Source: Candidatus Kuenenia stuttgartensis
GTDB taxonomy: Bacteria > Planctomycetota > Brocadiia > Brocadiales > Brocadiaceae
Assembly (NCBI RefSeq): GCF_900232105.1
Contig: NZ_LT934425.1
Coordinates: forward strand, 3,180,001 to 3,212,000
Length of the DNA: 32,000 nt
Direction: 5' to 3'
The notes beneath the pieces were generated by a model. That model was not told the DNA's origin and did not search any database. It saw only the letters and a program-made list of their open reading frames with translations. Position numbers and translations under genes: made by a program. Each line of letters begins with the position of its first letter. The stretch's first letter is position 1. Of this stretch, positions 5,742 to 32,000 are shown one piece after another.

Positions 5742-7800
5742 CCCCCTTTCCGGAAAGATTTCAACAAAATCCTTATTTTAAGCGGGTTTCCACAAATTCA
5801 AAATAATATGTAGTCGCAGAATAAATGGCCTATTTATTAATACAAATCCTTTATAACCCTATAAATACTGACTTGACAAAATATTTTATTAATGATAGTG
5901 TAGTCAAAGAATATTGGGACTACATTATGCACCTTACTTATAGCGATTCTAAATACAAAGGGAAAACCTATAAATCTTACTCTATTGCCGAATCCTACAG
6001 GGATGGCAAAAAGGTCAGAAAAAGAATACTTTGGCCCATCGGGAAACTTTCCGATATTCAAGCCGAGCAAATCAAACTGATATGTAAAACAGTTGAAAAC
6101 ACAGATCAATTGCAGACTCAGCTCAAAGACGTTGCAGTCCTGGAAAGCAGGGCATATCTCGATATAGCCGTTGTTAATGAGTTGTGGAACCAGTGGCAGC
6201 TTGATCAGGCTTTTGACTACGATGTCACTGCAGGCGCCCTTCCTACCAATATGATTGCAAAGATACTGACTATTAACAGGTGCACCGATCCGTGTTCTCA
6301 TTATTCCATTCCTCATTGGGCGAAAAAGAGCGCGCTGGAGGACATTCTTAAAATTGATCTTTCAGGCCTAAATGACGATAAAATCTATTATGAATTAGAT
6401 AAAATACACAAAAACAAAATATCTATAGAGAACCACCTTTTTAACCAAACCTTCTGGAAACGTCCGGAATCCTATAAATTTATCAACTACGACCTAACTA
6501 CTTCCTACTTTGTGGGATATAACTGTGATCTATCGGCATTTGGCAAGGGCAAAATAGAGTGTCATGGCAGGCGGCAGGTCTTACTGGGTGTTCTTATCAA
6601 CTCTGAGGGATATCCTTTCAAATGGGATGTATTCCCCGGGAACACCGCTGAGGTAAAAACCCTCAAACAGAATATCAATGCCTGTAAAACCAGATTCAAA
6701 TTGACTGATAAAAACGTCACCCTTGTATTTGACAGAGGCATAATCTCTGAGGACAATGCCAATTTGATAGAAGAAGCCAAACTCAAATACATCTCGGCAT
6801 TGGATAGAAATCAGATACCCTCTTGCGGTGTCAGTTTAAAGTCTCTTAATGGGTTATCCATAGAAGATAAGGACGCCTCCGATATACCTATCCCGCAAGG
6901 GTTTTTAAACTATGATGATGAATTATACTACCATGACAATGGCGTCATAGGAAACAAGCGTTTTATTACCGGTTTTAATCCCACTTTATTTATAGAAGAC
7001 CGCAATAATAGAGACGAGAAAATAACCTTTTTTAAGGATTATCTCAAAGAAGAGAATAAAAACCTTAAAAATGCCCAAAGAGACCGGCAATATGACGCAA
7101 CAAAGAGCCGCATTGTAGATGAGCTGAAAAGGTTAAAGATTCATAAATATTTCGAAGACCCTGTTCTGACGTCCATCACCGTTACCCATAGACTGAAAAA
7201 CGGGCAGGTCAAATCCGTCAAAAGTTTCAAAATAGAAATCAAGCTGTTAACTGATGTTATAGCCGCAGATAGATTGTTGGATGGCGTATGTGTTTTTATC
7301 ACTAACCATACAGAACGGGAAGATGGAGGTGCGTTTAAAGCAAAACCCCAATCTATAGTTAGAGCCTATCGGGACAAGACAAAAATAGAAGATGTCTTTA
7401 AAAATGTAAAATCGTTCTTAAAAATCAGGCCCTTCTTTGTCAATACCGAGGCACATGTTAAAGCCGTCTATACTATCTGCATCCTGGCATATTTTATAAA
7501 CCGTTATCTATCAAACCAACGAAAGGCAATAGGAGAAAAAGATTTTTTAAACTCAAAGGAACTCTATGCGCCGTTCAAAGATATAGATATCGCCACTCTT
7601 GAGGCTAAAAATACCGGTGAAACCTTAAAGAAAGCCGTGAAACTTCCCGCCGTCACACAAATGCTATTGGAAAAACTTGGAATGTCCAATGTTGTTTTCG
7701 GCCAGTAATTAAAAGACTTCCAAAAGACATGTAGTCGCAGAATCAATGTTTATAAGTGTTTGCCAAATTTGACTTTAGTAATTTCTTTCCGGAACATGGG
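5742..7800 (+). mobile_element. IS1634-family (IS4 superfamily) insertion sequence with 6-bp target-site duplication
   Basis: Imperfect terminal inverted repeats CCCCCTTTCCGGAAAGATTTCAACAAAATC (from 5742) and, as reverse complement, CCCATGTTCCGGAAAGAAATTACTAAAGTC (ending 7800), with an 11-bp perfect core TTCCGGAAAGA. Identical ATCTAA at 5736-5741 and 7801-7806. Single large DDE transposase ORF. Confidence 0.7.
5825..7708 (+). CDS. IS1634 family DDE transposase
   Basis: 627 aa. The N-terminal YKGKTYKSYSIAESYRDGKKVRKRILWPIGKL motif is characteristic of IS1634-type transposases. A long C-terminal DDE region is present. The true start may be Met35 (nt 5927). Confidence 0.8.
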   Translation: MAYLLIQILYNPINTDLTKYFINDSVVKEYWDYIMHLTYSDSKYKGKTYKSYSIAESYRDGKKVRKRILWPIGKLSDIQAEQIKLICKTVENTDQLQTQLKDVAVLESRAYLDIAVVNELWNQWQLDQAFDYDVTAGALPTNMIAKILTINRCTDPCSHYSIPHWAKKSALEDILKIDLSGLNDDKIYYELDKIHKNKISIENHLFNQTFWKRPESYKFINYDLTTSYFVGYNCDLSAFGKGKIECHGRRQVLLGVLINSEGYPFKWDVFPGNTAEVKTLKQNINACKTRFKLTDKNVTLVFDRGIISEDNANLIEEAKLKYISALDRNQIPSCGVSLKSLNGLSIEDKDASDIPIPQGFLNYDDELYYHDNGVIGNKRFITGFNPTLFIEDRNNRDEKITFFKDYLKEENKNLKNAQRDRQYDATKSRIVDELKRLKIHKYFEDPVLTSITVTHRLKNGQVKSVKSFKIEIKLLTDVIAADRLLDGVCVFITNHTEREDGGAFKAKPQSIVRAYRDKTKIEDVFKNVKSFLKIRPFFVNTEAHVKAVYTICILAYFINRYLSNQRKAIGEKDFLNSKELYAPFKDIDIATLEAKNTGETLKKAVKLPAVTQMLLEKLGMSNVVFGQ

Positions 7801-15003: not shown

Positions 15004-17160
15004 TCAATCCCCTTTTTCCATAGAATATCGTATCTTTGCCCTGACTAATTTTATTTCATCGTAGGAATACTCTTCTCCTAATTTTTCTTTAACAGGGGTT
15101 AACGCCTCCATACCCAGTTCTCCCAGCACCGTGCGGATTCGTTGCTGTTTTGCCGGAGCAACAAATTTATCTATGGAGACATCTTCTCCCGCGATTATAA
15201 GCGTTTCAAGATGAGTGGCGATTGTAGATGTTGCAAGGCCTCTTTTCCCGGCTATTTCCCGAAGCGAAAGATTGTTTTTATAGAGTTCCAGCGTTGTGTA
15301 AACAGTGGGAGATTTCATTTGTTTCCTCAAGGTTGCCTGCCGTCTGGAGTTCGCCTCTTTTGGCGTTATCTGGTGTTGTCTGCAATAATTGCATATTTCT
15401 TTTAAGAAAAGGTCTCCGTATTTTCTTAATTTCAGTTCACCCATACCGCTGATTTTTTTTAAATCAGAAGCTGTTTGTGGATACCGCATCGACATTTCCT
15501 TTAAACTTGTGTCATGGAAAATAACATAAGGAGGCATAGACTCCTGGTCTGCAAGCGTTTTTCTTAGCGTCCTCAAACGTTCAAACAACGCCAGATCATA
15601 ATTCTTATCTTCTCCGGACACGGCCAACGAAGCGGTTTCCTCTGGTTTTACCAAAAGAACCTTCTTCTTGCCTTGCAATACCTCACGGCTCTGGCTGGTC
15701 AGTTTTAAGACGGGGTATCTGTCGCCTTCCTGCGCCAGATACCCCAACTGGATCAATTCACGGGAAAATGTTAGCCATTGGGATTTTGAATATTCCTTTC
15801 CTATGCCAAACGTTGTAAGAGCTGTATGGCTATTTTGCAGTATTTTCTGGTTTTGCGAGCCTAGCAGGACGTCGATAACGTGATGCATGCCAAAAGATTC
15901 ACCCACTCTATAGACACACGACAACAGTTTTTGCGCAGCAACTGTTCCGTCAAATTGTTCCTTTGGGTTAAGACAGGTATCACAATTTTCACAATTGTGC
16001 GTAGTAAATTTTTCTCCGAAATAATCGAGCAATATCTTTCTCCGGCAAACGTTGCCTTCGCAATATGACACGAGCGCCTTTAATTGTTGATATGCCGCCT
16101 GTTTTTCGTTTTCATCCTCCTTTTGATGTATAAAATATTCTATCTTAATCTTATCTGCATAACTGAAGAGAAGGATGCAGTCGCTTTTTAGCCCGTCTCT
16201 GCCGGCGCGTCCTGTTTCCTGATAATATCCTTCAATGCTTTTCGGCAAATCATAGTGAATCACGTAACGTACATTCGGTTTATCGATGCCCATGCCAAAC
16301 GCAATGGTTGCTACAATAATCTCTATGTCTTCACGAATAAAACGCTCCTGATTTTCTGTTCTCATTTCAGCGGACAATCCGGCGTGGTAGGGAAGGGCGC
16401 GATACCCTTCTCCCTGTAAACTCCCTGCCAGGCTTTCAACTGTTTTACGTCCCTGACAATAGATGATGCCCGACTCCTTCTTTCGTTCTTTTAAAACACA
16501 AAGAATCTGGTGGTATGGATTGTCTTTGGGTATGATCTGATAAAAAAGGTTTTTTCTGTTGAAGCTGGCATTAAAGACTTTGTAGTCGGTCAATTTTAAT
16601 TGCGTTACAATATCTTTCTGCACGGAAGGCGTGGCGGTGGCCGTCAATGCCATGAACGGCGTCTTTGGGAATTTCTCCCTCAACATCTTTAATTGGCGGT
16701 ATTCCGGCCTGAAGTCATGTCCCCATTCAGAAATACAATGCGATTCGTCTATTGCGAAAAGGGAAACTTTCAATTCCTGCAGGAACTGAAGGAATTCACG
16801 CATGGCAAGCCTTTCGGGGGCGATATAAAGAATCTTGATTTTACCCTCCAAAAGGTCCCTTTTTCTTGCCGCAACCTCGCGGGCATGCACGGAGCTGTTA
16901 ATGAATGTTGCGGAAATGCCGTTTTCCGTTAATCCATCCACCTGATCTTTCATCAAGGCAATTAAAGGAGATATAACAACCGTTATTCCATCGAAAAGCA
17001 GTGCGGGCAATTGATAACACAAAGACTTGCCGCCCCCTGTAGGCATGAGGACAAAGAGGTCTTTTTGCTCCAGCACCCACCGGATAATATCTTCCTGAAG
17101 CGGATAGAACTTTGAATAGCCAAAATATTTTTGTAACGCCGAATAAATACGGTCTTTCAT
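15004..17160 (-). CDS. recQ: ATP-dependent DNA helicase RecQ (with C-terminal HRDC plus an extra HTH-like domain)
   Basis: MKDRIYSALQKYFGYSKFYPLQEDII start. Motifs PTGGGKSLCYQLPA, DESHCISEWGHDFRPEY and the RQC zinc motif CRRK..C..CD.C. The ORF-track extension to 17322 translates the family-1 repeat, so I place the start at ATG 17158-17160. Confidence 0.9.
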   Translation of the reverse strand: MKDRIYSALQKYFGYSKFYPLQEDIIRWVLEQKDLFVLMPTGGGKSLCYQLPALLFDGITVVISPLIALMKDQVDGLTENGISATFINSSVHAREVAARKRDLLEGKIKILYIAPERLAMREFLQFLQELKVSLFAIDESHCISEWGHDFRPEYRQLKMLREKFPKTPFMALTATATPSVQKDIVTQLKLTDYKVFNASFNRKNLFYQIIPKDNPYHQILCVLKERKKESGIIYCQGRKTVESLAGSLQGEGYRALPYHAGLSAEMRTENQERFIREDIEIIVATIAFGMGIDKPNVRYVIHYDLPKSIEGYYQETGRAGRDGLKSDCILLFSYADKIKIEYFIHQKEDENEKQAAYQQLKALVSYCEGNVCRRKILLDYFGEKFTTHNCENCDTCLNPKEQFDGTVAAQKLLSCVYRVGESFGMHHVIDVLLGSQNQKILQNSHTALTTFGIGKEYSKSQWLTFSRELIQLGYLAQEGDRYPVLKLTSQSREVLQGKKKVLLVKPEETASLAVSGEDKNYDLALFERLRTLRKTLADQESMPPYVIFHDTSLKEMSMRYPQTASDLKKISGMGELKLRKYGDLFLKEICNYCRQHQITPKEANSRRQATLRKQMKSPTVYTTLELYKNNLSLREIAGKRGLATSTIATHLETLIIAGEDVSIDKFVAPAKQQRIRTVLGELGMEALTPVKEKLGEEYSYDEIKLVRAKIRYSMEKGD

Positions 17161-17179
17161 TTTATCAATACATCCTAAA

Positions 17180-17301
17180 CTGGCATAGCCAGAACTAAAC
17201 AAGCACGAGATAAAAAATACGAAATTCGAAGTACGAAATACGAAACAAATTCGAATAACAAAGCATAAAATCCAAAACATACAACAAAAAGAAATTACTG
17301 C
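17180..17301. repeat. Family-1 intergenic element, copy 3 (reverse orientation)
   Basis: The reverse complement of 17180-17223 matches the 44-bp module of copy 1 at 41/44 positions. Tandem TACGAAA motifs at 17215-17255. GCAGTAATTTCTTTTT end shared with copy 2. The module ends 19 nt upstream of the recQ ATG. Confidence 0.6.
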
Positions 17302-19780: not shown

Positions 19781-20887
19781 ATGAACAAGAAATACACAAA
19801 ATTTCTCCCCTACTTTTTTTTAATTATAGCAGGATTATTTTTTTACCACGCGACAGGAAGTTTATCACGCGATAAAGTAGTGTTCCGTCCTGTAACACCA
19901 TCTCCAGGTGAATTTAGCAGCGAGGAGCAGGCTACCATAGACATTTTCAAGATGACCTCTTCTTCTGTGATATATATTACAAACAAACAGGTGCGAAGGG
20001 ATTTGTTCTCACTGGATGTCTTCAAGATTCCGCAGGGTGCCGGTTCCGGTTTTATCTGGGATGAAAACGGTCATATCGTAACTAATTTTCACGTTATCTA
20101 CAATGCGAATGAAATAGATGTGACGTTGAACGATGGTTCTGTGTGGGATGCCCGCCTCGTGGGCGTTGACCCTGACCATGACATTGCGGTGCTTAGGATC
20201 AATGCGCCAAAAACAAAACTGATACCTGTACTCATAGGTACTTCTTCCGATCTGCAGGTGGGCCAGAAAGTACTGGCGCTCGGCAATCCATTCGGTCTGG
20301 ATCTGACCCTTACAACAGGGATTATCAGCGCGCTTGGAAGAACGATTGAGGCGATGACGGGAAGAACCATTTTTGACGTTATTCAGACAGATGCCGCTAT
20401 TAATCCTGGAAATTCAGGAGGCCCCTTGCTGGATTCCTTTGGAAGAGTTATCGGAATGAACACATCAATTATGAGTCCAAGCGGTGCGAGCACAGGAATT
20501 GGATTTGCGGTTCCCATTGATACAATAAACCGTAATGTATCTCAATTAATTGCAAGGGGGAAAGTAGAACGTCCAGGTTTGGGCATTACCCTTGTTCCAA
20601 ATAACATTACAAAACAGCTTGAAATACAAGGGGCATGTATTCTTGAAGTCATTCCAAATGGGGCGGCAGACAAGGCCGGTTTACAGGGAACAAAAAGAAA
20701 CAGGACGGGCAGCCTCCTCATGGGGGATGTAATTATAGAGGTAGAGGGAAACAAGGTGAATAATTCTGAGGATCTCATCAAGGAGTTGTCCCGCTACAAA
20801 GTGGGGGATAGTGTTACATTAAAGGTTTTGCGGGATAAAAATGTCATGGAAAAAAGAATTAAACTGCAACCCATTGATAGTAAATAG
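19781..20887 (+). CDS. HtrA/DegP-family (S1C) serine protease with one PDZ domain
   Basis: Catalytic triad context (TNFHV, DIAVL, GNSGGPL), an N-terminal TM/signal segment and a C-terminal PDZ. ATG 19781 is preferred because AGGA lies 6 nt upstream; the track ORF starts at TTG 19766. Confidence 0.85.
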   Translation: MNKKYTKFLPYFFLIIAGLFFYHATGSLSRDKVVFRPVTPSPGEFSSEEQATIDIFKMTSSSVIYITNKQVRRDLFSLDVFKIPQGAGSGFIWDENGHIVTNFHVIYNANEIDVTLNDGSVWDARLVGVDPDHDIAVLRINAPKTKLIPVLIGTSSDLQVGQKVLALGNPFGLDLTLTTGIISALGRTIEAMTGRTIFDVIQTDAAINPGNSGGPLLDSFGRVIGMNTSIMSPSGASTGIGFAVPIDTINRNVSQLIARGKVERPGLGITLVPNNITKQLEIQGACILEVIPNGAADKAGLQGTKRNRTGSLLMGDVIIEVEGNKVNNSEDLIKELSRYKVGDSVTLKVLRDKNVMEKRIKLQPIDSK

Positions 20888-21078
20888 TACTACAGCGACA
20901 TTTTATTCTTACGTCCTCCACAAAAATCGGCAGAGTATTAACCATGACAGGGTTGTTTCTTTCATTTCCAACATCTGAAATAAAAATGTCGCGGTGGTGA
21001 TAGTTTCTTAATAAAAATATTTTCTCATACGCTCTGTCCATGCGGTATGAGCCAATACCTTATAACCGCCGACTATTT

Positions 21079-21200
21079 ATGTAACACTTTAGTTTTTTGA
21101 AAAAGTAGGGGCGAAGCATTTGCTGCAAATGCTTCGCCCCTAACACTATGCGGCAAACATGGCCATTATTGGCCTTTTTCAAAAAACTAAAGTGTTACAT
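21079..21200. repeat. Family-2 palindromic element, copy D (complete, both termini)
   Basis: Terminal inverted repeats ATGTAACACTTTAGTTTTTTGAAAAA (21079-21104) and TTTTTCAAAAAACTAAAGTGTTACAT (21175-21200). Perfect 18-bp-stem hairpin TAGGGGCGAAGCATTTGC-T-GCAAATGCTTCGCCCCTA (21106-21142). Ends 6 nt from the HD-GYP gene stop. Confidence 0.7.
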
Positions 21201-21205
21201 ATTTA

Positions 21206-22480
21206 TTATTCGAAGTGCAGGAGTATGCATTCTGTTTTAAGGTATTTTTCTCTTGCTTCATCCTGTGCGGCAATACGAGCAGAATTAATTTCATTAAAAT
21301 GCAAGAGTAGTGCTGAAACAATATTGGGATCGAGTTTCGATTCTTCTCCCAATTTTTTAAGCTCTTCGTGTATTGTTTCGCCGGAAAATTTATTCCGGTA
21401 TGGTCTGATTTCTGTGAGGGCGGTAAATACATTGGCAACTGCCAGGATTCGCGCTCCCAACGGGAGAAGATCCTCTTTGACATGGAAAGGATAGCCTGTC
21501 CCTGATAACGTTTCGTGGTGATACGACGCCCACGAAACAATATCCTTGAAAGCCGCGATGCTTTTAAGGATAAGATGCGTATAGAAGGGATGCTTACGAA
21601 TAATGCCAAACTCCTCTTCCGTTAACGGTTCTTCTTTTTCCAACAGCTCTATCGGCACCACAAGCATTCCGATATCGTGTACATAACCGGCAATTTTCAT
21701 CCATTGGCATTCTTGTTTTGAAAAACCGACAAATTGCGCCAATTTTTCAGCCGTAGCCGCAACGCCGGCAGAATGCGTGGCAAAAAAAGCGCTTCTGAAA
21801 TCTACAATTCTTGAAAATACCTTAGAAAAGGAAACAAGGTGCTCCATGTCCAATGAAATAGAAGGCATTTTTACCCTGCCGGACAGAATTACATAGAGCA
21901 GTGACGAAGTGGCTTCAAGCCAGAAATACTCCTTTTCTGCTAATTTCAGAAAGGCATCTACCAGTTCCGGCATGAACATTTTTCCGGATTGTGCCTTTAT
22001 CTTTTCACGAATACTGTCCACCTGCCCGAGTATTTCTTCCTGTTTATTTATTAAAGTAGAAACCCTGTCCGCAATATGTAATATATAACTGCCATATGGC
22101 ACCTTTTTTCCCGATTTCTGTATTTTATTTTTTTTATCCCAGCGGACGTGATGAAATCGTATAAGATTTGCGATGGAACTAAATGGTTTAAATTCGTTAA
22201 GGAAGAGGTATCCTAATTCTTCATGTTCGTGAGGAAATTCGCTTTCAAATTTAAGAAGGTCCATCCTTTCTGCACGGCAATAACATCCAATATCATGTAA
22301 AGCCCCTGCCAACACGAGACCTCTTTTTTCTTCCATGGATAACCCCAGTTCTTCGCTGAGGCTAAAAGCGATATAAGCAACTTGCATGTGATGATTTACC
22401 CATGCGGGATTAACCAAATCAACGGTTTCTGATAAACCCGTAGTTAAATCTAATAAGGATATTTGTGATTCTTTTGCCAT
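21206..22480 (-). CDS. Tandem HD / HD-GYP domain phosphohydrolase (putative c-di-GMP phosphodiesterase)
   Basis: 424 aa. The C-terminal domain has HDIG, HP..TH and HHETLSGTGYP (HD-GYP signature). The N-terminal domain has HDIG and HHVRWD but lacks GYP. Confidence 0.8.
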   Translation of the reverse strand: MAKESQISLLDLTTGLSETVDLVNPAWVNHHMQVAYIAFSLSEELGLSMEEKRGLVLAGALHDIGCYCRAERMDLLKFESEFPHEHEELGYLFLNEFKPFSSIANLIRFHHVRWDKKNKIQKSGKKVPYGSYILHIADRVSTLINKQEEILGQVDSIREKIKAQSGKMFMPELVDAFLKLAEKEYFWLEATSSLLYVILSGRVKMPSISLDMEHLVSFSKVFSRIVDFRSAFFATHSAGVAATAEKLAQFVGFSKQECQWMKIAGYVHDIGMLVVPIELLEKEEPLTEEEFGIIRKHPFYTHLILKSIAAFKDIVSWASYHHETLSGTGYPFHVKEDLLPLGARILAVANVFTALTEIRPYRNKFSGETIHEELKKLGEESKLDPNIVSALLLHFNEINSARIAAQDEAREKYLKTECILLHFE

Positions 22481-22504: not shown

Positions 22505-24247
22505 TTATTTTTTGTCGGCGATTCTATCGTTAAGGGACTGGATAAATTTTTCTCTATCTACATTATGCATTTTTGCAGCCATATCAATCGTTGCTACTCT
22601 TCCCATCGTATTCCTAATAACAGGATTCGCCATTTGGCTGAATCCATAATCAAGAAATATCTGCAATGTTTCAGGATATTGGTCCACAATATCAAATACC
22701 TTCGTATCCTTGTCGACTACCGTTATTTTTTTAATTTCAGAAGGCTTAGGTTGTTCCTTCGTGTTCATAGTCTTCCACAAATTGTATCCAAAAAAACCTA
22801 TCGCGGCCAGCTCAAACCATCCCGATGTTCCCACAATACCGTAAAAAATAGGTTTTCCTCCGCTTATCCCGACGGACATTTGGGAAAATACCCGGATAAA
22901 ACATCCTGTGTTTAAAAGTATGAAGGTAATATGTGAAAGTTTAATACTGTGCATATTTATGCCGGTAAACGTTGGAACCATTTTTGAAGCATAACCAATC
23001 ATCATCATCGTAATAAAACCAACGGTGACGGCATGATTAAACGAACCATGAAATTGCTTTAATATCTCTGTTTTATTATGCAAAAAAGGCATGGTAATGA
23101 GTATTAGCATGCTGATGATAAGCCATATGTAAGCAGCATGTATCGTTTTTGTATAACTCCTGTCCATTACAACACCATGAAGTTCTTTTGTAGACCTCTC
23201 AAAGACGCGCAAACCGTAAATGAATGAAAAAACGGCGAACGCAATGAAGAATACCACCAATTGTGAAAACCGCAGTGCAATGACACTTTTGCCGGCAAAA
23301 ACGCATGTAATAAAATAAACTGGTATGGATGCGTTAAGCATCCAAAAACTGAGGTTAATCGCCTTTTCACGGACAGGCTTAATGTCAAGAAAAGCATATA
23401 CTGTCCTTATATTGACAGCAAAAATAAACATAAAAACAAAACCAAAGAGGTACAAATGTACGTAGGGGCTAAAAACTGATTTGGGTATCTCCTGAACCGA
23501 TTTATTATATAAATAAAAAACCATCCCCAAGTTCACCAATGAGGAAATCAACAACCACAGTAGTCCTGCCTTGAAAAATTTGTCGAATATGCCGACCTTT
23601 TCCTGACTGGAAGATATCGTACTAAAAAGAATGAAGGAAAACAACAGGACTGCACCAATCTCAAACATCGCGGATGCAGGAAGCAGGAATCTTACAGAAC
23701 TATACGGAACAGGCTGCACGACGGCCCTTAAAACAATGCCGATAATGATGAATCCGAAGCAGACATTTACCAGATTTTTGTGCCGCAGTTCGGTATTTTT
23801 TACCCTCGGTATGATGTATAAAGCAAACCCCATAATAAAAAGTCCTACCCATCCTACTAACTGGGCATAACCATGCGCCTGGATGTGGGCATAGTGCGTT
23901 GCGTTGAAATTCAATTTAATCGCAATATAACTAAGAATAACGGCACCAAATGTTACCCCTACGGTAAGTGTAAATAAAATCGCAGCTTTCGCGAACTTTT
24001 CATATACCTTATCTACCTCTAACAGAGGAAGTTCAACATACTCCCCTCCGCCTTTTTCAATGGCTTCATTTAATTCTCTCACCAACGTGTCATAATCAAC
24101 CTCATGTGCCTTTGCAAAAAAAGCTATTGGCTCATTAGGTCCCCGCACACCGCCGGCAATGACCAGGTTATACTTTTTGAATACTGCAAGTGTTTCCGGA
24201 TGCGCCTCTATAAGGTCTTTAATTACGGTATTTTTATTTATTTCCAT
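22505..24247 (-). CDS. DUF1858 - 12-TM NnrS-like core - DUF1858 membrane protein
   Basis: 580 aa. Both the N-terminus (VIKDLIEAHPETLAVFKKYNL...AKAHEVDYDTLVRELN) and the C-terminus (VFDIVDQYPETLQIFLDYGF...AAKMHNVDREKFIQSLN) match the DUF1858 pattern. About 12 hydrophobic helices carry conserved-looking His residues (HYAHIQAHGY, HLYLFGF, HGSFNHAV), reminiscent of NnrS. The NnrS assignment is tentative. Confidence 0.6.
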   Translation of the reverse strand: MEINKNTVIKDLIEAHPETLAVFKKYNLVIAGGVRGPNEPIAFFAKAHEVDYDTLVRELNEAIEKGGGEYVELPLLEVDKVYEKFAKAAILFTLTVGVTFGAVILSYIAIKLNFNATHYAHIQAHGYAQLVGWVGLFIMGFALYIIPRVKNTELRHKNLVNVCFGFIIIGIVLRAVVQPVPYSSVRFLLPASAMFEIGAVLLFSFILFSTISSSQEKVGIFDKFFKAGLLWLLISSLVNLGMVFYLYNKSVQEIPKSVFSPYVHLYLFGFVFMFIFAVNIRTVYAFLDIKPVREKAINLSFWMLNASIPVYFITCVFAGKSVIALRFSQLVVFFIAFAVFSFIYGLRVFERSTKELHGVVMDRSYTKTIHAAYIWLIISMLILITMPFLHNKTEILKQFHGSFNHAVTVGFITMMMIGYASKMVPTFTGINMHSIKLSHITFILLNTGCFIRVFSQMSVGISGGKPIFYGIVGTSGWFELAAIGFFGYNLWKTMNTKEQPKPSEIKKITVVDKDTKVFDIVDQYPETLQIFLDYGFSQMANPVIRNTMGRVATIDMAAKMHNVDREKFIQSLNDRIADKK

Positions 24248-24700: not shown

Positions 24701-25075
24701 ATGCCAAAAGTATTAATAATTGATGATTCCTCCGTAATGCGCAAAATGATCCAGAGAAACATTCAACAGTCCGGTTTGATGGTTGATTCATTTGTGGAAG
24801 CAGGAGACGGAAAAGAAGCTCTGGCTAAAATTGCCGCAGATAGCAGCATTGACCTGATTCTTTGTGATTGGAACATGCCCAATATGACAGGTATTGAATT
24901 TGTGAAGGCACTCAGGGGCAGTGGAAACCAGACCCCTATTATAATGTGTACTACTGAAGGCAGTGACGCAAAAGTAGTAGAGGCTACAGGCAGTGGTGCT
25001 AATGGCTATATCACAAAACCATTCACCCCTGACCAATTAAAAACCAAATTAGGTGCTTTTTTACAAATTAAATAG
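24701..25075 (+). CDS. cheY: Chemotaxis response regulator CheY
   Basis: 124 aa single REC domain. IIDDS, DLILCDWNMPNMTG, TTEG and YITKPF motifs. AAGGAG lies upstream. Confidence 0.9.
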   Translation: MPKVLIIDDSSVMRKMIQRNIQQSGLMVDSFVEAGDGKEALAKIAADSSIDLILCDWNMPNMTGIEFVKALRGSGNQTPIIMCTTEGSDAKVVEATGSGANGYITKPFTPDQLKTKLGAFLQIK

Positions 25076-25152
25076 AAAAGTACCTTCTTAATAGCTATTT
25101 GCGCCCGGGCAATTTAAAAAAACCGAAAAAGAAATCAAAAGGAGCTTACACA

Positions 25153-25677
25153 ATGGATCTTAAGGGGATCATGGATGGGATTACTTTAGATATTAAGGAA
25201 ACAACGAAAATATTATTTGAAACAATGATTATGCTGGATTTAAACTATGGAGATGCTTCGCTCATTGACGAAACACAGATTAAAACTGATGTTATTGGCA
25301 TGGTAAGCTTTACAGGCCAGTATCACGGGGTAGTCGGTATATTTTGTTCAAAAAAATTTGCGCTAAAAGTAGCCTCCAGCATGTTAATGATGGAACTGGA
25401 GGAATTCAATAACGACGTGAAAGATGCCGTCGGAGAAGTATCTAATATGATCGCCGGAAATATTAAGACCAAAATGTCAGAAAAATATGGCGAAATGCAC
25501 CTTTCTATCCCCATTGTAATAGCGGGTGAAGGCCTTTCCATTACAGCGGTCGGCAACGTGCCTACCGTATCAGACACCGCCTTGTCATGCTTTAGCAAGG
25601 ACCCATGGTTGATGACGTATTTTAGCGCAGAAAAAGAAAAATTTGGCGTAGGTTTGCTGTTGAAAGAGTCAAAATAA
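25153..25677 (+). CDS. cheX: CheY-P phosphatase CheX
   Basis: 174 aa. AVGEVSNMIAGNIK (E-x2-N active-site motif) and overall alignment with Thermotoga/Borrelia CheX as I remember them. The ATG is preceded by AAAAGGAG; the track ORF starts earlier at TTG 25099. Confidence 0.8.
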   Translation: MDLKGIMDGITLDIKETTKILFETMIMLDLNYGDASLIDETQIKTDVIGMVSFTGQYHGVVGIFCSKKFALKVASSMLMMELEEFNNDVKDAVGEVSNMIAGNIKTKMSEKYGEMHLSIPIVIAGEGLSITAVGNVPTVSDTALSCFSKDPWLMTYFSAEKEKFGVGLLLKESK

Positions 25678-25700: not shown

Positions 25701-26723
25701 ATGGAAAAACCTGCCGATAAATCAGAGAAAAAGGCGCCCGCGTCTCAGTTTGAGAAAACGTGGGTTAGTACATTTCCGCGCGTTTGCGAAGGATGCAGCC
25801 AATTAACAAACAAGCAATTTTTTCTCATTAACCCTGTTTTAAAAATTACCACCATAGGAACTTTTATTAAAAATGCCAATGCAAAGTTTGTGTTATCAAA
25901 AATAATTGTCGAGGATTTTTATGAGGGCGAAATATATTTACTTTTATCTTTAAAACTAGCGATAACAATTGGTAACATTCTCCTGCTTCTCGAAGATGAA
26001 GCAATAAAGGAAAATGCTAATAAGGAAAATTTCGATGCTGATTGCGCGGACGGTTTCAAAGAGTTTTCGAATCAGGTATGCGGTATTTTAGATAATGACC
26101 TACGCCTGAAATTACCCAAACCGATTCACCTGAAATTATTATCGGTAGAGCCAATAAACAAAGAAAATATGACCACCGTATTAAAAGACGACATCCTTAA
26201 CGAAGAATGCCTTTTCCTCTCTACTTCTTTAAGAATAATGGGTTTTGACGATGATCAATTTATTATATGTGTCCCTAAATTGATCGGAGAAGAATTTTTC
26301 GGGGAAATCATTGAGGAAGAAAACAAAGAATATCGGGGAACAATACTTGCAGTGGACGATTCAAACACCGATTTACGAATCATCAGAAAATTACTCGGTA
26401 ATGATTATAAAGTATTGGTGACAGACAATCCGGGCCATGCGCTCTCAACTCTGGGGAAAACCAATATCGATCTGGTATTAATGGACATTTACATGCCAGG
26501 AGTTGACGGAATTACCCTCTGCGAAAGAATTAAAAGAAATGCAATGGTTGAAGATGTGCCTATTATTATCTGCTCCGCCCACCCTACGCAGGAAAATGTA
26601 ATACGCGCCGTAAGGGCAGGCGCTGCTGATTTTATAGTAAAACCGGTAACGAGACAAAAATTAATGGAAAAAATTAACAAACATATGCTTAATAAAAGCT
26701 TAAAAATCCCTGCAAACCGATAG
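25701..26723 (+). CDS. CheX/CheC-like domain fused to a C-terminal receiver (REC) domain
   Basis: 340 aa. The N-terminal ~210 aa parallel the adjacent CheX (LAITIGNILLLLEDE...DGFKEFSNQVCGIL, with E-x2-N). The C-terminal REC has an intact acidic pocket, phospho-Asp, Ser and Lys (AVDDS, LVLMDIYMPGVDG, IICSAH, VKP). Confidence 0.7.
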   Translation: MEKPADKSEKKAPASQFEKTWVSTFPRVCEGCSQLTNKQFFLINPVLKITTIGTFIKNANAKFVLSKIIVEDFYEGEIYLLLSLKLAITIGNILLLLEDEAIKENANKENFDADCADGFKEFSNQVCGILDNDLRLKLPKPIHLKLLSVEPINKENMTTVLKDDILNEECLFLSTSLRIMGFDDDQFIICVPKLIGEEFFGEIIEEENKEYRGTILAVDDSNTDLRIIRKLLGNDYKVLVTDNPGHALSTLGKTNIDLVLMDIYMPGVDGITLCERIKRNAMVEDVPIIICSAHPTQENVIRAVRAGAADFIVKPVTRQKLMEKINKHMLNKSLKIPANR

Positions 26724-26745: not shown

Positions 26746-28530
26746 ATGGAAGATACCTCTTTTTTAATGGATGACCCGGAAATTGTCAAAGAATTCCTGA
26801 CAGAATCGGGGGATCATCTGGAATCGGTAGAATCACAAATCCTCCAATTAGAAGAAAACCCGGACAATACGGATATTATCAACACAATATTCCGCCCTAT
26901 TCACAGCACGAAAGGAAGCGCCGGCTTTTTAGGATTGAAGGATATGGGTACAGTAAGCCATGAACTAGAAACACTTCTTGACGAAGCAAGAAAGGGCAAT
27001 CTGAAAATAACCCCGTTAATCATAGAAATATTGTACGAAGGCGTGGACATACTGAAAAGATTAAGGGGGCTTGTTGCAAAGAAAGTCGAGAAAATAGACG
27101 TTTCGGACGAAATTGTAGATTACGCCCCGGTTATTGTAAAAATAAAAAATGCCCTCGTAGGACAGAAAGCAACGGAAAGCGCACCTTCAAAACCGCAGCA
27201 CTTAGGTGAAATACTTGTAGAAAAAGGGGAAATTACCGAAGATGACCTTGACAAGGCATTAGAGGAACAGGAAAAACTACAGCAAAAAAAAATAGGAGAA
27301 ATCATTGTTGAAAAGGGCATCGTCACAAAAGAAACTATAGACAGCGCCCTCAAAACCTTGCCGGCAACAGCGCCAGTCTCAGAAACGGTCAAGGTCGATA
27401 TACAAAAAATAGACAGCCTTGTAAACCTTGTGGGCGAACTGGTAATCGCCAACGCCCTCATAAAAGACCTTCTGGAAAACACGAACAGCACATCAAATAA
27501 AAATATTTCACACCTGGGAAAGATAGTAAAAGACATACAAGATCAGGTAATGTCAATACGAATGGTTCCCATTAAATCAACCTTCCAGAAAATGTCGCGG
27601 CTCGTCCGTGATGTTTCCAAAAAAGCCGGCAAAAAGGTAAAGCTGGAAGTTTCCGGAGAAGAGACTGAACTAGACAAATCGGTAATTGAATCAATTGGAG
27701 ACCCGCTGGTACATATTCTTAGAAATTCGGTAGATCATGGAATCGAACCGGAAGAAGAACGGATTGCCGCGGGAAAGCCTGCCTTGGGACATGTGTATCT
27801 TGATGCCTTTCACAAAGGGGGGAACATTTTTATTGAAATAAGAGACGACGGCAGGGGTTTACGAAAAGATAAATTACTGAAAAAAGCCATTGAAAAAGGA
27901 ATAATGAGTGAAAACGCCACTCTTACTGAACAACAAATCTTCGGTTTGATTTTTGCCGCAGGATTTTCCACTGCTGAGAAGATAACCGATATATCAGGAC
28001 GCGGCGTAGGGATGGATGTGGTTAAGAAAAATATTGAACGCCTGCGCGGCAAGGTCGAAATCTCTTCAGAAGAAGGCAAAGGCACGAAAATCTCTATCAA
28101 ACTTCCCCTGACAATGGCAATCATTGACGGAATGATCGTCCAGGTAGGGAATCAGAAATATATCGTTCCAATGCTTTCTATAGAAGAATCCATACGCCCG
28201 AAAAAAGATGATATCTCAACGATACAACAGCGCGGTGAAGTAATAAATGTGCGGGGCAATATTTTGCCAATGGTACGGCTGCACCAGTGGTATAATGTAG
28301 AGCCTAAAAAATACGCCCCATGGGAGGCCATTATTCTCATTGTTGAAAGTGAAGGGCAACGATGTGGGATTCTTGTCGATGATTTAATAGGGCAACAACA
28401 AATTGTCATCAAACGCCTTGGAGAACAATTCCGCAATGTCAAAGGGGTTTCCGGCAGTGCCATACTTGGGGACGGAAGGGTAGGGCTTATATTGGATGTC
28501 GGCGGCATTATGAATCTTGCTCTTAACTAA
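26746..28530 (+). CDS. cheA: Chemotaxis histidine kinase CheA (P1-[MshEN-like insert]-P3-P4-P5)
   Basis: 594 aa. Hpt motif HSTKGSAGFLG, dimerisation VKVDIQKIDSLVNLVGELV, HATPase N/G boxes (HILRNSVDHGIE, DDGRGL, GRGVGMDVV) and a C-terminal CheW-like domain. Confidence 0.9.
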   Translation: MEDTSFLMDDPEIVKEFLTESGDHLESVESQILQLEENPDNTDIINTIFRPIHSTKGSAGFLGLKDMGTVSHELETLLDEARKGNLKITPLIIEILYEGVDILKRLRGLVAKKVEKIDVSDEIVDYAPVIVKIKNALVGQKATESAPSKPQHLGEILVEKGEITEDDLDKALEEQEKLQQKKIGEIIVEKGIVTKETIDSALKTLPATAPVSETVKVDIQKIDSLVNLVGELVIANALIKDLLENTNSTSNKNISHLGKIVKDIQDQVMSIRMVPIKSTFQKMSRLVRDVSKKAGKKVKLEVSGEETELDKSVIESIGDPLVHILRNSVDHGIEPEEERIAAGKPALGHVYLDAFHKGGNIFIEIRDDGRGLRKDKLLKKAIEKGIMSENATLTEQQIFGLIFAAGFSTAEKITDISGRGVGMDVVKKNIERLRGKVEISSEEGKGTKISIKLPLTMAIIDGMIVQVGNQKYIVPMLSIEESIRPKKDDISTIQQRGEVINVRGNILPMVRLHQWYNVEPKKYAPWEAIILIVESEGQRCGILVDDLIGQQQIVIKRLGEQFRNVKGVSGSAILGDGRVGLILDVGGIMNLALN

Positions 28531-28572: not shown

Positions 28573-29085
28573 ATGGAAGGTGTTCTTAGTCAGCAAAAAC
28601 CTGCCGAAATTTCCAGTCTGGCTTCTCATGAAGGAAAATATTTAACTTTTGTTCTGGGCGATGAAGAATATGGTATCGAGATTTTAAAAGTAAGGGAAAT
28701 CATTGGCGTCATGGCAATAACGCCTGTGCCTCAATCGCCAAATTATATTAAGGGCGTAATTAATTTAAGGGGAAAGGTAATTCCCGTAGTTGATTTAAGG
28801 TTAAAGTTCGGGTTTCCGGAAAAGGAACACACGAAAGAAACCTGCATTGTTGTGGTGGAAGTAAACAATACCCTTACGGGCGTCATTGTAGACACAGTAT
28901 CGGAAGTCATTGATATTGCCACAGAAGACATGGAACCTTCTCCGCACTTTGGGCAGGACATAGATACCGATGTTTTTTTAGGCATTGCACAGATAAAAAA
29001 TAAGGTCAAAATACTACTCGATATTGACAAGATATTACGCCAGGAAGAAGTCTGCATGGCGAGCAATTTTACAGAAATATGTTAA
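28573..29085 (+). CDS. cheW: Chemotaxis coupling protein CheW
   Basis: 170 aa. [21 protein letters not shown]...[14 protein letters not shown] is the typical CheW domain. Strong AGGAGG RBS. Confidence 0.9.
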
Positions 29086-29120
29086 ACATAATAAAAATTT
29101 TTCAAAAGAAAGGGATTATA

Positions 29121-30833
29121 ATGTTCGGCAAAATGACGATAATGACAAGGCTCATCGTGACAATAGTTATCTCAATCGCGATAGGATCCGGTATTTTATC
29201 GGTGATTGTCATGAAGAGGGAAAAGGCGCAAATGCTGGAGGAAGTAAAAAAGGAGGCGCGTATGGCGGCGAATCAGCTTATGTCTGTCCGGCAGGTGATT
29301 GCGACAAAACAGCAGGCCATAAACAATGATTCCAAAGGCAACTTCGAATTCAAAGGGGTAATCCCCGCAGTGGTTGGTCGTGAAGTGGCAGAGCACTTCA
29401 GCCAGACTACCATATACAAAATGAAGCAAACAAGCCTGCAATACAGAAATCCATCGAATAAACCCGATGCGTGGGAAACCAGACAGTTAGAACGCTTTGC
29501 CGCAAATCCTGATTTAAAAGAGATTTCAGAAATAACCATCGAAGACTGGAACCTGGGAGCGGCGTCGCAAATATTCCGCCTTATGGTACCACTAAAAATT
29601 ACAGAAGCCTGCCTTGTATGTCATGGATATCCGGAGACAAGCCCTACGGGAGATGGCAAAGACATATCGGGAAGGCAAATGGAAGGGTACAAACTTGGAG
29701 AAATCAGGGGCGGAATAAGCGTGGTGGCGCCTATGGACAGTATAAATGCGGCAATTGCGGCAAACAGAAATTTCAGCATTCTGGGAAACGGGATTTTTGT
29801 CCTTCTTATTAGTGGTGTGGTATTCTTCGTTACCAAGGGGGTTGTATCTTTATTGAAAAGGACGGTTAATCACCTGAATGCGGGAGCGGAAGAAGTGGCT
29901 GCGGCGTCATCGCAAATATCTTCTTCAAGCCAGTCGCTTGCCGATGGGGCATCGCAGCAGGCAGCTTCCGTGGAGGAGACTTCCGCTTCAATAGAAGAAA
30001 TGTCTTCGATGACGGCAAAGAATGCAGATAATGCAGAAGAGGCAAGCCATTTGACGGTCAAGGCAAAATCTTCGGCGGAGGAAGGCCACGAGACGATGAA
30101 ATCATTGCAGACAATTATGCGTGAATTGCATGGAGGAAATAATCAAATTCTTGCAATTATCAAGTCGATTGACGAAATAGCGTTCCAGACAAACCTTTTA
30201 GCGCTGAATGCCGCAGTAGAGGCCGCAAGGGCCGGTGAACACGGGAAGGGATTTGCCGTGGTTGCGGACGAGGTTCGCAATTTAGCCCAAAGGTGCGCAA
30301 CGGCGTCAAAAGAAACGGCAGACCTGATCAATGCGCGTGTACAGAGCAATGACAACGCCTTAAAGATTACCGAGGTGTTTGCAGAAAAGCTGAAGGAAAT
30401 AGCAACGGATACGAAGAAGGTTGCAGATTTGATGGGAGAGATCTCAGCGGCTTCAAGGGAACAATCGGAAGGGGTAGGCCAGATAGGAAAAGCTATGACG
30501 TCCATAGATAACGTTACCCAACAAAATGCAGCCAATGCAGAACAAATGGCATCCGCCAGCGAAGAACTATCTTCCCAGTCGGTGAATTTAAGAGAAGTCG
30601 TGCTCGAACTCGCAGCACAGGTCGGCGGGATACGGGAGGAGGCTATGGAACCGGAGGTTAAGAAAAAAACATCCTTGAAAAAAGAAATCACTTATCACAG
30701 AAGACCTGCCCTAGAGGCTTACAAGGCTGGAGGGAGCAAAGGCCGCAAACATGTTCGCAAAAATGATGAGGGGGAATCAGGGAAAAAACCTGAAGATATA
30801 ATACCTATGGATGGTGAGTTCAGTGATTTCTGA
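29121..30833 (+). CDS. Methyl-accepting chemotaxis protein with periplasmic c-haem DUF3365 (Tll0287-like) sensor domain
   Basis: The segment between TM1 and TM2 contains [13 protein letters not shown]...[10 protein letters not shown]...[13 protein letters not shown] (DUF3365 pattern with CXXCH). The cytoplasmic MCP signalling hairpin is [36 protein letters not shown]. The ORF is open from ATG 29079, which overlaps cheW by 7 nt. I prefer ATG 29121 because GAAAGGGA lies upstream. Confidence 0.85.
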
Positions 30834-30939: not shown

Positions 30940-31422
30940 ATGAACGACGCCCCTAATATCTACACCGTTGGCGTTGGAGATGCAAAAATAGCACGGGCTC
31001 CTAACCAATTAAAGACATTGCTCGGTTCATGCATCGGAATAGCATTGTACGACCCCATAGTAAAAGTAGGGGGCATCCTTCATATCATGCTGCCCAAAAA
31101 AATAGGGAATGATCAAAAATTAACGAAATATGCTGACCCGGGATTGCCTTTTTTTATCGGACAAATCATCAAAAACGGCGGAGCGTCAAAAAACACCCTC
31201 CTTGCAAAAATATTTGGCGGCGCAAAGATGTTCGAAACCGCCGGGAAGCTCATTAATATTGGCGAAAAAAATGAACATGAAGTGCGCAGGATATTAAAAG
31301 AAGAAGGTATCAAAATTGTAGCGGCAAAAACGGGTGGAACAAAGGGATACAATATAGCGCTTGATACAACCACCGGCAATGTGGAATGCCGCATATTCGG
31401 AGAAGCTGTCTGTATTTATTAA
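30940..31422 (+). CDS. cheD: Chemoreceptor glutamine deamidase CheD
   Basis: 160 aa. LGSCIGIALYDP...GGILHIMLP...GGAKMF...IG.KN motif series typical of CheD. Confidence 0.85.
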   Translation: MNDAPNIYTVGVGDAKIARAPNQLKTLLGSCIGIALYDPIVKVGGILHIMLPKKIGNDQKLTKYADPGLPFFIGQIIKNGGASKNTLLAKIFGGAKMFETAGKLINIGEKNEHEVRRILKEEGIKIVAAKTGGTKGYNIALDTTTGNVECRIFGEAVCIY

Positions 31423-31484: not shown

Positions 31485-32000
31485 ATGGTTATTTCACCGG
31501 AACGCTTACGGATGTTGGAGGTAATAATGAAGCTTTCTATCGACAATGCTTCAAGGGCCCTTTCCAAGACATTAAGGACCGGTGCAAAAATCACTCTCTC
31601 TAAAATCTACATGGCAGATTTTAACGAAGCCACTGAGAAAATGAATACTGACACGAGGGAAATGACCGGCATTATTGTCAATTTTAAAGGCAACTTCGGC
31701 TGTAAAATGCTGTTTATGCTGCCTCTTGAAGGTTCTACAATACTGACGGACTATTATCTCCGTCTACCGGTGGGTACAACAAAAGAGTTTAACACTGATA
31801 CCGAAAGCGTCTCTCAGGAATTGGGGAATATTCTTGCAAGCCATATCAGCAACACGCTGGTTTCAGACTTCGACGCTACATTATTGCCGGAACCGCCGCA
31901 AGTGCATAACGATTATGCGGGAATAATATTTTCAAGTCTTTTGTTGGAACAAGGGATCTATAGCGATCAATTGCTACTTGTTGAAACAATTTTTGAAATC
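31485..32000 (+). CDS. cheC: CheC-like CheY-P phosphatase (3' end outside window)
   Basis: My own translation from ATG 31485 is open to the window edge (172 codons; this ORF is absent from the ORF track). It contains SIDNASRALSKTL and SQELGNILASHISN (E-x2-N), as in the CheC/FliY family. Its position after cheD fits the known CheC-CheD pairing. Confidence 0.65.
   Translation, partial: MVISPERLRMLEVIMKLSIDNASRALSKTLRTGAKITLSKIYMADFNEATEKMNTDTREMTGIIVNFKGNFGCKMLFMLPLEGSTILTDYYLRLPVGTTKEFNTDTESVSQELGNILASHISNTLVSDFDATLLPEPPQVHNDYAGIIFSSLLLEQGIYSDQLLLVETIFEI

Follow-up and report, generated by a model that had tools for sequence, protein, structure and literature searches.

What lies between the phosphotransfer domain (P1) and the dimerisation domain (P3) of the chemotaxis kinase CheA of Candidatus Kuenenia stuttgartiensis, and does it connect the kinase to cyclic di-GMP (c-di-GMP)? 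The question is raised by the cheA gene in a 32,000-nucleotide stretch of contig NZ_LT934425.1 (positions 3,180,001 to 3,212,000; hereafter the window, with coordinates counted from its first letter). c-di-GMP is the main bacterial switch between motile and sessile life, and the CheY-binding P2 domain is present in CheA of the E. coli and Thermotoga type but absent from many classes. The original prediction, made from the letters of the window, held that this CheA has no room for P2 and carries there two tandem units resembling the MshEN c-di-GMP-binding motif. Sequence comparison and modelling indicate that amino acids (aa) 152-205 are almost certainly a homologue of MshEN_N, and we lean slightly towards the view that this domain is a c-di-GMP sensor that would feed the second-messenger level directly into the kinase. 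In the ATPases MshE and PilB/PilF, MshEN_N binds one c-di-GMP molecule (PMC5013675, PMC11731258).

The translated protein is 100% identical to the UniRef entry Q1PXP0_KUEST of Candidatus Kuenenia stuttgartiensis, an anammox planctomycete. Its P1, P3, P4 and P5 domains follow one another in canonical CheA order and the gene is located within a che cluster, as judged from Pfam and the neighbouring genes. The gene and its parts are the following.

26746..28530, + strand: cheA, 594 aa (open reading frame translation, Pfam, UniRef match)
26776..27162, + strand: P1/Hpt five-helix domain, aa 11-139 (Pfam Hpt at aa 12-96)
27163..27198, + strand: linker from P1 to MshEN_N, aa 140-151, predicted to be disordered (per-residue model confidence, pLDDT, <50 for aa 140-150)
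27199..27270, + strand: MshEN motif I, aa 152-175, HLGEILVEKGEITEDDLDKALEEQ, helices alpha1 and alpha2
27229-27231, + strand: E162, position 11 of motif I (family alignment)
27271..27288, + strand: spacer EKLQQK between the motifs, aa 176-181, 6 residues
27289..27360, + strand: MshEN motif II, aa 182-205, KIGEIIVEKGIVTKETIDSALKTL, helices alpha3 and alpha4
27361..27378, + strand: short linker from MshEN_N to P3, aa 206-211, predicted to be disordered (pLDDT <50 for aa 206-220)
27379..27558, + strand: P3 dimerisation domain, aa 212-271 (Pfam H-kinase_dim, E=1.2e-13)
27700..28113, + strand: P4 ATP-binding kinase domain, aa 319-456 (Pfam HATPase_c, E=6.6e-18)
28129..28515, + strand: P5 CheW-like domain, aa 462-590 (Pfam CheW, E=2.5e-31)

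The placement of the insert in the original prediction (27199-27360, aa 152-205, two units of 24 residues) agrees exactly with the translation, and so do the departures from the published motif that it listed, namely His or Lys at position 1 (H152 in motif I, K182 in motif II), Glu at position 11 of motif I (E162), Leu at position 24 of motif II (L205) and a spacer of 6 residues.

The assignment to MshEN_N is carried in the first place by the NCBIfam model NF053729.1, a curated profile of 53 positions named 'cyclic di-GMP-binding domain-containing protein, MshE-related' ('c-di-GMP_motif, MshE-related'). The model matches CheA at aa 153-203 over profile positions 2-51 of 53 (E about 1e-16) and gives 55.3 bits with the whole protein and 58-59 (59.1) bits with the fragment, against a cut-off of 38. 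A phmmer search with aa 143-214 against the PDB sequences retrieved Thermus PilF (4.8e-14), Geobacter PilB (2.5e-5), the isolated c-di-GMP-binding domain of PilF (6.5e-5) and V. cholerae MshE (0.015), and every match up to E=0.05 was a c-di-GMP-binding GSPII/MshEN domain. Also, a search with the CheA fragment in a library of 1.84 billion proteins returned 2,936 cluster representatives at E<=1e-3.

The predicted structure points the same way. An AlphaFold model of a 72-aa fragment, built on a 40-sequence alignment, has a core pLDDT of 82-88 and contains four helices in the order short-long-short-long (fragment residues 11-18, 23-36, 41-48 and 53-62), with the turns at the conserved glycines. 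When the PDB was searched with this model using Foldseek, the 16 best matches were all MshEN/GSPII domains. The crystal structures 8PFA, 8PDK and 5HTL were matched with a probability of 1.00 and a root-mean-square deviation (rmsd) of 1.0-1.3 A; ligand-bound PilF GSPII-B superposed at 1.0-1.3 A over 50-56 columns with 40-44% identity, and the MshE-c-di-GMP complex 5HTL at 1.1-1.3 A over 54-56 columns. The structure prediction proposed as a check of the original claim thus placed the insert on MshEN and PilF complexes with c-di-GMP, and neither the lack of any profile match nor the generic charged linker, each of which would have spoken against the claim, was seen.

That the insert is such a linker, with a merely fortuitous likeness to MshEN, is nevertheless worth weighing, given that the segment is rich in Glu and Lys and that the Pfam model PF05157 (T2SSE_N) found no match at E<=10 in either the whole protein or a 100-aa fragment. 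The latter was the profile that the original prediction had named for its verification; it failed, and the evidence came from the NCBIfam model instead. The relaxed pattern [RKPN]hGxxhhxx[GAS]hhxxxxhxxxhxx[QNKRYWST] (PMC5013675), run as a regular expression, likewise found no match in CheA; the two units are present at the right spacing and fail at H1 and E11 in motif I and at L24 in motif II. Against chance similarity stand the match to the curated profile, about 17-21 bits over its cut-off, the E-value of 4.8e-14 to PilF, the compact four-helix bundle that superposes at about 1 A on MshEN and PilF, and a position-specific conservation over 114 homologues that is described below. The chance explanation is already refuted by the phmmer, Foldseek, profile and conservation results, and we regard it as extremely improbable.

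Two observations on the profile libraries may be added here. Stand-alone MshEN_N is detected by NF053729 and missed by Pfam T2SSE_N. In the CheA insert, Pfam gave weak partial matches to DUF4388 and FumaraseC_C only, and the MshEN_C half is absent. The MshEN_N segments of several CheAs similarly show partial, mostly sub-threshold matches to PF14332 (DUF4388, profile positions about 38-89) and to FumaraseC_C, and an MshEN-like helical hairpin may therefore be part of the DUF4388 model.

The absence of P2, as originally claimed, holds for this protein. Pfam gave no P2 match between P1 and P3, and the full-length AlphaFold model contains only helices and disordered linkers in aa 115-218; no beta-strand is predicted there and therefore no alpha/beta P2 fold. 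In that model P1 comprises helices at aa 11-37, 42-62, 65-82, 90-114 and 127-139 (pLDDT 78-94), followed by the disordered aa 140-150, the MshEN_N helices at aa 153-159, 165-177, 183-189 and 195-204, and a second disordered segment at aa 206-220. A displaced P2 gene was not found elsewhere in the window by tblastn with the free-standing P2 gene of a related genome (L002, see below) as the query. The two motifs of the insert are alike at 11/24 residues and 38/72 bases, and the pair is therefore an old internal duplication and not a recent repeat at the DNA level.

Conservation was assessed in 120 listed CheA relatives (50-100% identity), in 114 of which the motif pair adjoins P3; these are mostly anammox bacteria (Brocadia, Wunengus, Scalinduaceae). 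Gly at position 3 is found in both motifs of all 114 homologues, Leu at position 21 in 111 and 112 of them for the two motifs, and positions 2 and 17 are aliphatic in nearly all. Gln at position 24 occurs in 106/114 in each motif. All eight exceptions in motif II carry Leu and belong to the Kuenenia clade, the only place where the second Gln is lost. Position 1 varies freely among K, H, P, R, Y, Q and L, and the spacer has 2, 4, 6 or 8 residues, with 2 in most sequences. At position 11 of motif I, the hydrophobic residue of the MshEN consensus gives way to an acidic one (D/E) in 98/114 CheA homologues, a family-specific feature. Positions 12-14 of motif II are mostly T-T-P in the family alignment. 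The Scalinduaceae-type orthologues (P0103-P0105, P0107-P0109, P0112-P0118 and P0120; 657-713 aa) carry four consecutive 24-residue motifs, equivalent to two bundles, and a few homologues, P0106 among them, carry three. With such doubled or tripled motifs, a CheA monomer could have one or two ligand sites.

Whether the domain binds its expected ligand is the harder part of the question, and the published binding data allow it to be approached residue by residue. In MshE each motif binds one half of c-di-GMP: position 1 stacks on the guanine, the backbone amides of Gly3 and of the next residue form hydrogen bonds to the guanine, Leu2 packs with Leu17 and Leu21 of the partner motif into a hydrophobic cluster beneath the base, and Gln24 forms hydrogen bonds to ribose and phosphate (PMC5013675). 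The G11L and G40I mutants of MshE bind poorly, if at all, while changes of Arg9 or Gln32 cost less than five-fold in affinity, and MshEN_N on its own, separated from the C-subdomain, binds at 0.35 uM (PMC5013675). The Kuenenia CheA keeps the contact residues G154 and G184, L153, L168 and L172, I183, I198 and L202, and Q175, but has L205 in place of the second Gln.

For its deviations, the GSPII domains of PilF are instructive. GSPII-B has K or L at position 1 and binds at 6 nM, its K167L mutant binds at 2 nM, and GSPII-C, with P335 at position 1 of motif II, has an affinity similar to that of MshEN (500 nM) (PMC11731258). A single Gln-to-Glu change at position 24 of PilF weakens binding 77-158-fold, and only the double mutant abolishes it (PMC11731258). 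In the alignment of PDB sequences, position 11 of GSPII-C is Lys, so that binding is compatible with a polar residue there. Each single deviation of the Kuenenia protein has a tolerated precedent in this comparison, which is a point in favour of binding.

Several observations nevertheless weigh against binding, and against a sensory role that would depend on it. His at position 1 lies outside all published versions of the motif, and the Kuenenia protein deviates at three positions at once (H152, E162 and L205). Near-consensus motifs can be silent: PilF GSPII-A is a non-binder despite its near-consensus motif I, being silenced by small deviations, the N-cap and inter-subdomain contacts (PMC12002112), and XpsE/GspE have lost binding, the changes in XpsE including I19R at position 11 (PMC5013675). 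Since the conserved Gly and Leu residues have a structural role too, their conservation alone is no proof of ligand binding. The searchable literature contains no report of binding or activity for any CheA bearing MshEN_N. A search for c-di-GMP in Kuenenia similarly returned nothing relevant from the literature.

The profile score is of no help in this respect, as became clear when known binders and a known non-binder were scored with the same model, NF053729.1. PilF GSPII-B, a binder at 6 nM, reaches 63.3 bits and GSPII-C, a binder with an affinity similar to that of MshEN (500 nM), reaches 51.9 bits, while the proven non-binder GSPII-A obtains 53.1 bits. The Kuenenia CheA fragment scores 59.1 bits, a Brocadia CheA 67.0 bits and the two domains of a Scalindua-type CheA 52.9 and 50.1 bits. 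We therefore rejected the score as a stand-in for ligand binding, since the non-binder GSPII-A outranks the binder GSPII-C; the profile establishes homology and cannot decide on the ligand.

The main rival to a c-di-GMP sensor accepts the homology and drops the ligand: the domain would be a true MshEN_N that, at least in Kuenenia, binds no nucleotide and acts in the linker from P1 to P3 as a rigid spacer or a module for protein docking, where it could, for example, set the reach of P1 or recruit CheY, CheX or another partner to a CheA without P2. Besides the silent domains of PilF, XpsE and GspE, the three Kuenenia substitutions and the indifference of the profile score to binding, this explanation is favoured by the N-domain of Xanthomonas PilB, which binds a PilZ protein instead and whose structures (7lkm, 7lkn, 7lko) are among the fold matches, and by the acidic residue that motif I carries at position 11, a hint of a specialised surface. 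It has difficulty in accounting for Gln24, which is largely a ligand contact and whose retention in both motifs of 106/114 homologues is hard to explain without a ligand; the invariant Gly at position 3 and the tolerated precedents for the single deviations also speak against it. We consider a ligand-free structural or docking module possible but the less probable of the two.

A further alternative changes the ligand and not the fact of binding. The domain might recognise another cyclic dinucleotide, such as 3'3'-cyclic GMP-AMP (3'3'-cGAMP), given that MshEN binds cGAMP weakly (dissociation constant of 330 uM, compared with 0.5 uM for c-di-GMP; PMC5013675) and that the specificity could be shifted by the His at position 1 and the Leu at position 24. 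However, a preference for another ligand is not known from any MshEN-type domain, both half-sites keep the Gly backbone positions that recognise guanine, and no gene for making cGAMP is evident in the window, which leaves this alternative quite improbable.

Returning to c-di-GMP itself, the family and the Kuenenia copy have to be judged separately. The anammox CheA family probably binds c-di-GMP. For the Kuenenia copy, binding at physiological levels seems to us an evenly balanced matter: motif II lacks its Gln24 and motif I has His at position 1 and Glu at position 11, which suggests that binding has been weakened or lost, and the protein is predicted to be a weaker binder than its Brocadia and Scalindua orthologues, if it is a binder at all.

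If c-di-GMP is bound, a mechanism can be proposed from the domain layout. A lone MshEN_N, a four-helix bundle of 53 residues lacking MshEN_C, is suspended by about 12 disordered residues from P1 and by about 6-13 residues from P3, and would bind c-di-GMP between the phosphorylatable P1 domain and the P3/P4 core. Because of this location, ligand binding would change the tethering of P1 or its presentation to P4 or CheY. One route would be an unfolding like that seen in PilF GSPII-B, affecting the first turn of alpha1, a turn that in CheA runs on directly from the P1 tether; another would be a ligand-capped surface that lies next to, or docks on, the P3/P4 core. By either route, autophosphorylation or phosphotransfer would be altered. 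The structural data temper this proposal. The apo and holo bundles of PilF are nearly identical save for the unfolding of the first turn of alpha1 upon binding (PMC11731258), and for this reason a large ligand-induced switch within the domain would not be expected, which leaves any coupling to the kinase a matter of speculation. The full-length AlphaFold model, with a predicted TM-score (pTM) of 0.38 and a pLDDT below 50 for P5, is uninformative on how the domains pack.

The original prediction knew of no characterised CheA with such an insert; Wang et al. (2016) had in fact already named CheA and CheX among the fusion partners of MshEN_N (PMC5013675), and the combination is therefore not new. 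The Kuenenia protein is an uncharacterised example of a known architecture. Beyond the close homologues, we searched for CheA relatives in one genome of each GTDB species and retained the best 80 loci, a sample that is biased towards relatives of the Kuenenia query; the module was detected with a profile built from CheA MshEN_N domains. It was found in 31/80 of these best-matching CheA loci from other species, distributed over many phyla and including Nitrospinaceae, Phycisphaerae, Syntrophorhabdus, Desulfobacterales, Desulfuromonas, Nitrospira, Hydrogenedentota, Spirochaetota, Nitrosomonadales, Gemmatimonadetes, Acidimicrobiales, the actinomycete Krasilnikovia and Armatimonas. When ten of the survey loci were rechecked with NF053729, seven were over the cut-off, two were just under it and one gave nothing at E<=1e-8. 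The survey of homologues that the original prediction had proposed thus recovered the insert both among the close relatives (114/120) and in other species.

The spacing in these loci bears on the claim that the insert stands in place of P2. In 30/31 loci, those in which P3 was placed correctly, the module ends 0-17 residues before P3. The gap from P1 to the module is 11-56 residues in 18/31, which leaves no room for P2, and 80-177 residues in 7/31; the spacing could not be resolved in 6/31. Pfam gave no P2 matches in the surveyed CheAs with a long P1-MshEN_N spacing, and we infer a P2 domain in two of the surveyed loci (L028 and L038) solely from full-length alignment to an E. coli-type CheA model. 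Even in a biased sample, the P2-less and the longer forms both prove to be common, and the Kuenenia window adds to the evidence for the former. The claim of replacement therefore stands in so far as P2 is absent from the Kuenenia protein and the insert is at its site, but the module keeps its place before P3 whether the spacing to P1 is long or short; from the sequences it is best described as occupying a fixed slot before P3, with the presence or absence of P2 varying independently. It is conceivable, and we put it forward tentatively as somewhat short of an even chance, that the CheAs of many phyla (anammox Planctomycetota, Desulfobacterota, Nitrospinota, Nitrospirota, Actinomycetota, Betaproteobacteria and others) are c-di-GMP receptors in which a bundle before P3 gates the access of P1 to the core.

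The search of the representative library was uninformative as a measure of the share of CheA among MshEN_N relatives, since its ranking is dominated by multi-repeat proteins and the best 150 matches include one CheA. The strongest matches (P0121, P0122, P0124, P0126, P0128, P0130, P0138, P0142 and P0152) measure about 800-1,200 aa and contain 5-7 MshEN_N-like stretches. These proteins have an Hpt domain close to the Kuenenia P1 (phmmer to 1e-37) and no detectable kinase core. Among seven of them analysed with Pfam, bacterial TSP3 repeats were found in 6/7 and a C-terminal dockerin in 4/7, and the combination of a phosphotransfer domain with a dockerin is odd.

The neighbourhood of cheA in the window is that of a che operon, with a divergent unit of two genes on its left.

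21206..22480, - strand: 424-aa protein, HD/HDIG domain at the N-terminus and HD-GYP domain at the C-terminus (Pfam HD_5, E=1.5e-41)
22505..24247, - strand: 580-aa membrane protein, first gene of the divergent operon (two DUF1858, NnrS-like and COX1-like segments)
24701..25075, + strand: cheY, receiver (REC) domain only, first gene of the che operon (Pfam)
25099..25677, + strand: cheX phosphatase, without MshEN motif (translation, Pfam)
25701..26723, + strand: 340-aa protein with a C-terminal REC domain, its first about 200 aa without Pfam match
28573..29085, + strand: cheW (Pfam)
29079..30833, + strand: methyl-accepting chemotaxis protein (MCP) with a Tll0287-like sensor domain (Pfam)
30940..31422, + strand: cheD (Pfam)
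31485..32000, + strand: open reading frame running off the end of the window, by eye resembling the unannotated 201-aa gene after cheD in L002

The che gene order is the same in a Brocadia genome (L001) and in the more distant relative L002, whose CheA is 58% identical to that of Kuenenia and also lacks P2 and whose che genes lie right beside flagellar hook genes. In both genomes the gene directly upstream of cheA encodes a REC protein of similar length (335 aa in L001, 350 aa in L002), and the 340-aa protein is a candidate partner for the P2-less CheA. L002 further contains, at 16853-17245, the free-standing P2 gene (130 aa) between those for the MCP and CheD, and, at 19844-21271, a gene for a 475-aa protein with weak REC and PilZ matches, both inside its che cluster; neither has a counterpart in the Kuenenia window. 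The REC-PilZ gene is a piece of context in favour of the c-di-GMP reading.

The HD-GYP gene that the original prediction had pointed to as c-di-GMP context is indeed present in the divergent operon, which is separated from the che operon by a gap of 453 bp, and its HD (YVHDIG) and GYP (HHETLSGTGYP) motifs are intact. It supports c-di-GMP turnover in the organism. Its adjacency to the che genes, however, is not kept: no HD-GYP gene is found within 10 kb of the che cluster in L001 (where DHFR and HTH_17 genes lie upstream) or in L002 (flagellar hook genes). This counts against the link to the kinase, and because the gene is missing from the equivalent position in both genomes, we treat the adjacency as weak evidence for a functional connection. 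The product of the first gene of the divergent operon carries a DUF1858 domain at either end as well as segments resembling NnrS and heme-copper oxidases. The two-HD protein partly matches, well below the cut-off, the NCBIfam model 'nitric_RR_NosR' (response-regulator c-di-GMP phosphodiesterase, NosR family). The NnrS-like segments and the name of this model raise the possibility that nitric oxide and c-di-GMP are connected in this organism, which uses nitric oxide as an intermediate. At the far left of the window there are genes for a cytochrome P460 (410-919) and an Fe-S protein (2268-3638), and two transposase genes lie close together, one of the ISL3 family (3635-4891, - strand) and one with DDE_Tnp_1 (5825-7708, + strand).

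If the sensory role proposed for the CheA-borne MshEN_N is correct, it would provide a direct route for c-di-GMP into chemotactic signalling, and the two-bundle CheAs of the Scalindua type would read two ligand molecules. The known links between c-di-GMP and chemotaxis involve PilZ receptors, adaptors and CheY-like proteins, and a module carried by CheA itself would be the most direct of them. Kuenenia stuttgartiensis is a well-annotated organism in which the choice between aggregation and swimming matters for wastewater reactors, and the natural series of variants (Leu in Kuenenia and Gln in Brocadia at position 24 of motif II, and the doubled domain in Scalindua) would make a compact study of binding and kinase activity informative.

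Among characterised systems, the closest to the Kuenenia insert are MshE of V. cholerae (5HTL) and GSPII-B and GSPII-C of Thermus PilF (8PDK, 8PFA), with which it shares the two tandem 24-residue motifs and the four-helix bundle (26-44% identity, and 1.0-1.3 A for the predicted fold). Within the motifs, position 3 is likewise Gly, positions 2, 17 and 21 are aliphatic, and motif I retains its Gln24. In contrast to these ATPases, the domain is located inside a histidine kinase, with neither MshEN_C nor a secretion ATPase attached; it has His at position 1 and Glu at position 11 of motif I and Leu at position 24 of motif II, and its spacer has 6 residues (2 in most CheA homologues) instead of 5. 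The CheA listed by Wang et al. (PMC5013675), which was identified by sequence analysis only, also has MshEN_N immediately before P3. That example, from Aeromonas, keeps P2, whereas Kuenenia and the other anammox CheAs are without it; the Kuenenia protein also belongs to another phylum (Planctomycetota, Brocadiales), and its Scalindua-type orthologues carry two copies of the domain.

Direct control of a histidine kinase by c-di-GMP has precedents in CckA, where the ligand acts at HATPase_c, and in ShkA, where it acts at the Rec1-Rec2 linker, but these have unrelated binding sites and folds and neither is a chemotaxis kinase. Chemotaxis is likewise tied to c-di-GMP by the PilZ chemoreceptor Cbp1 of Azorhizobium, the MapZ-CheR1 adaptor system of P. 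aeruginosa and PlzC of V. cholerae, all of which act through PilZ on receptors, the methyltransferase or other points and not on CheA itself. Finally, CheA's localization and inheritance domain (LID) in Vibrio and Pseudomonas, which binds ParP, is also an extra module in the linker region of the kinase. We rejected it as the identity of the Kuenenia insert, given that LID consists of EFExLLD repeats, is confined to organisms with ParC and ParP, and does not have the MshEN fold.

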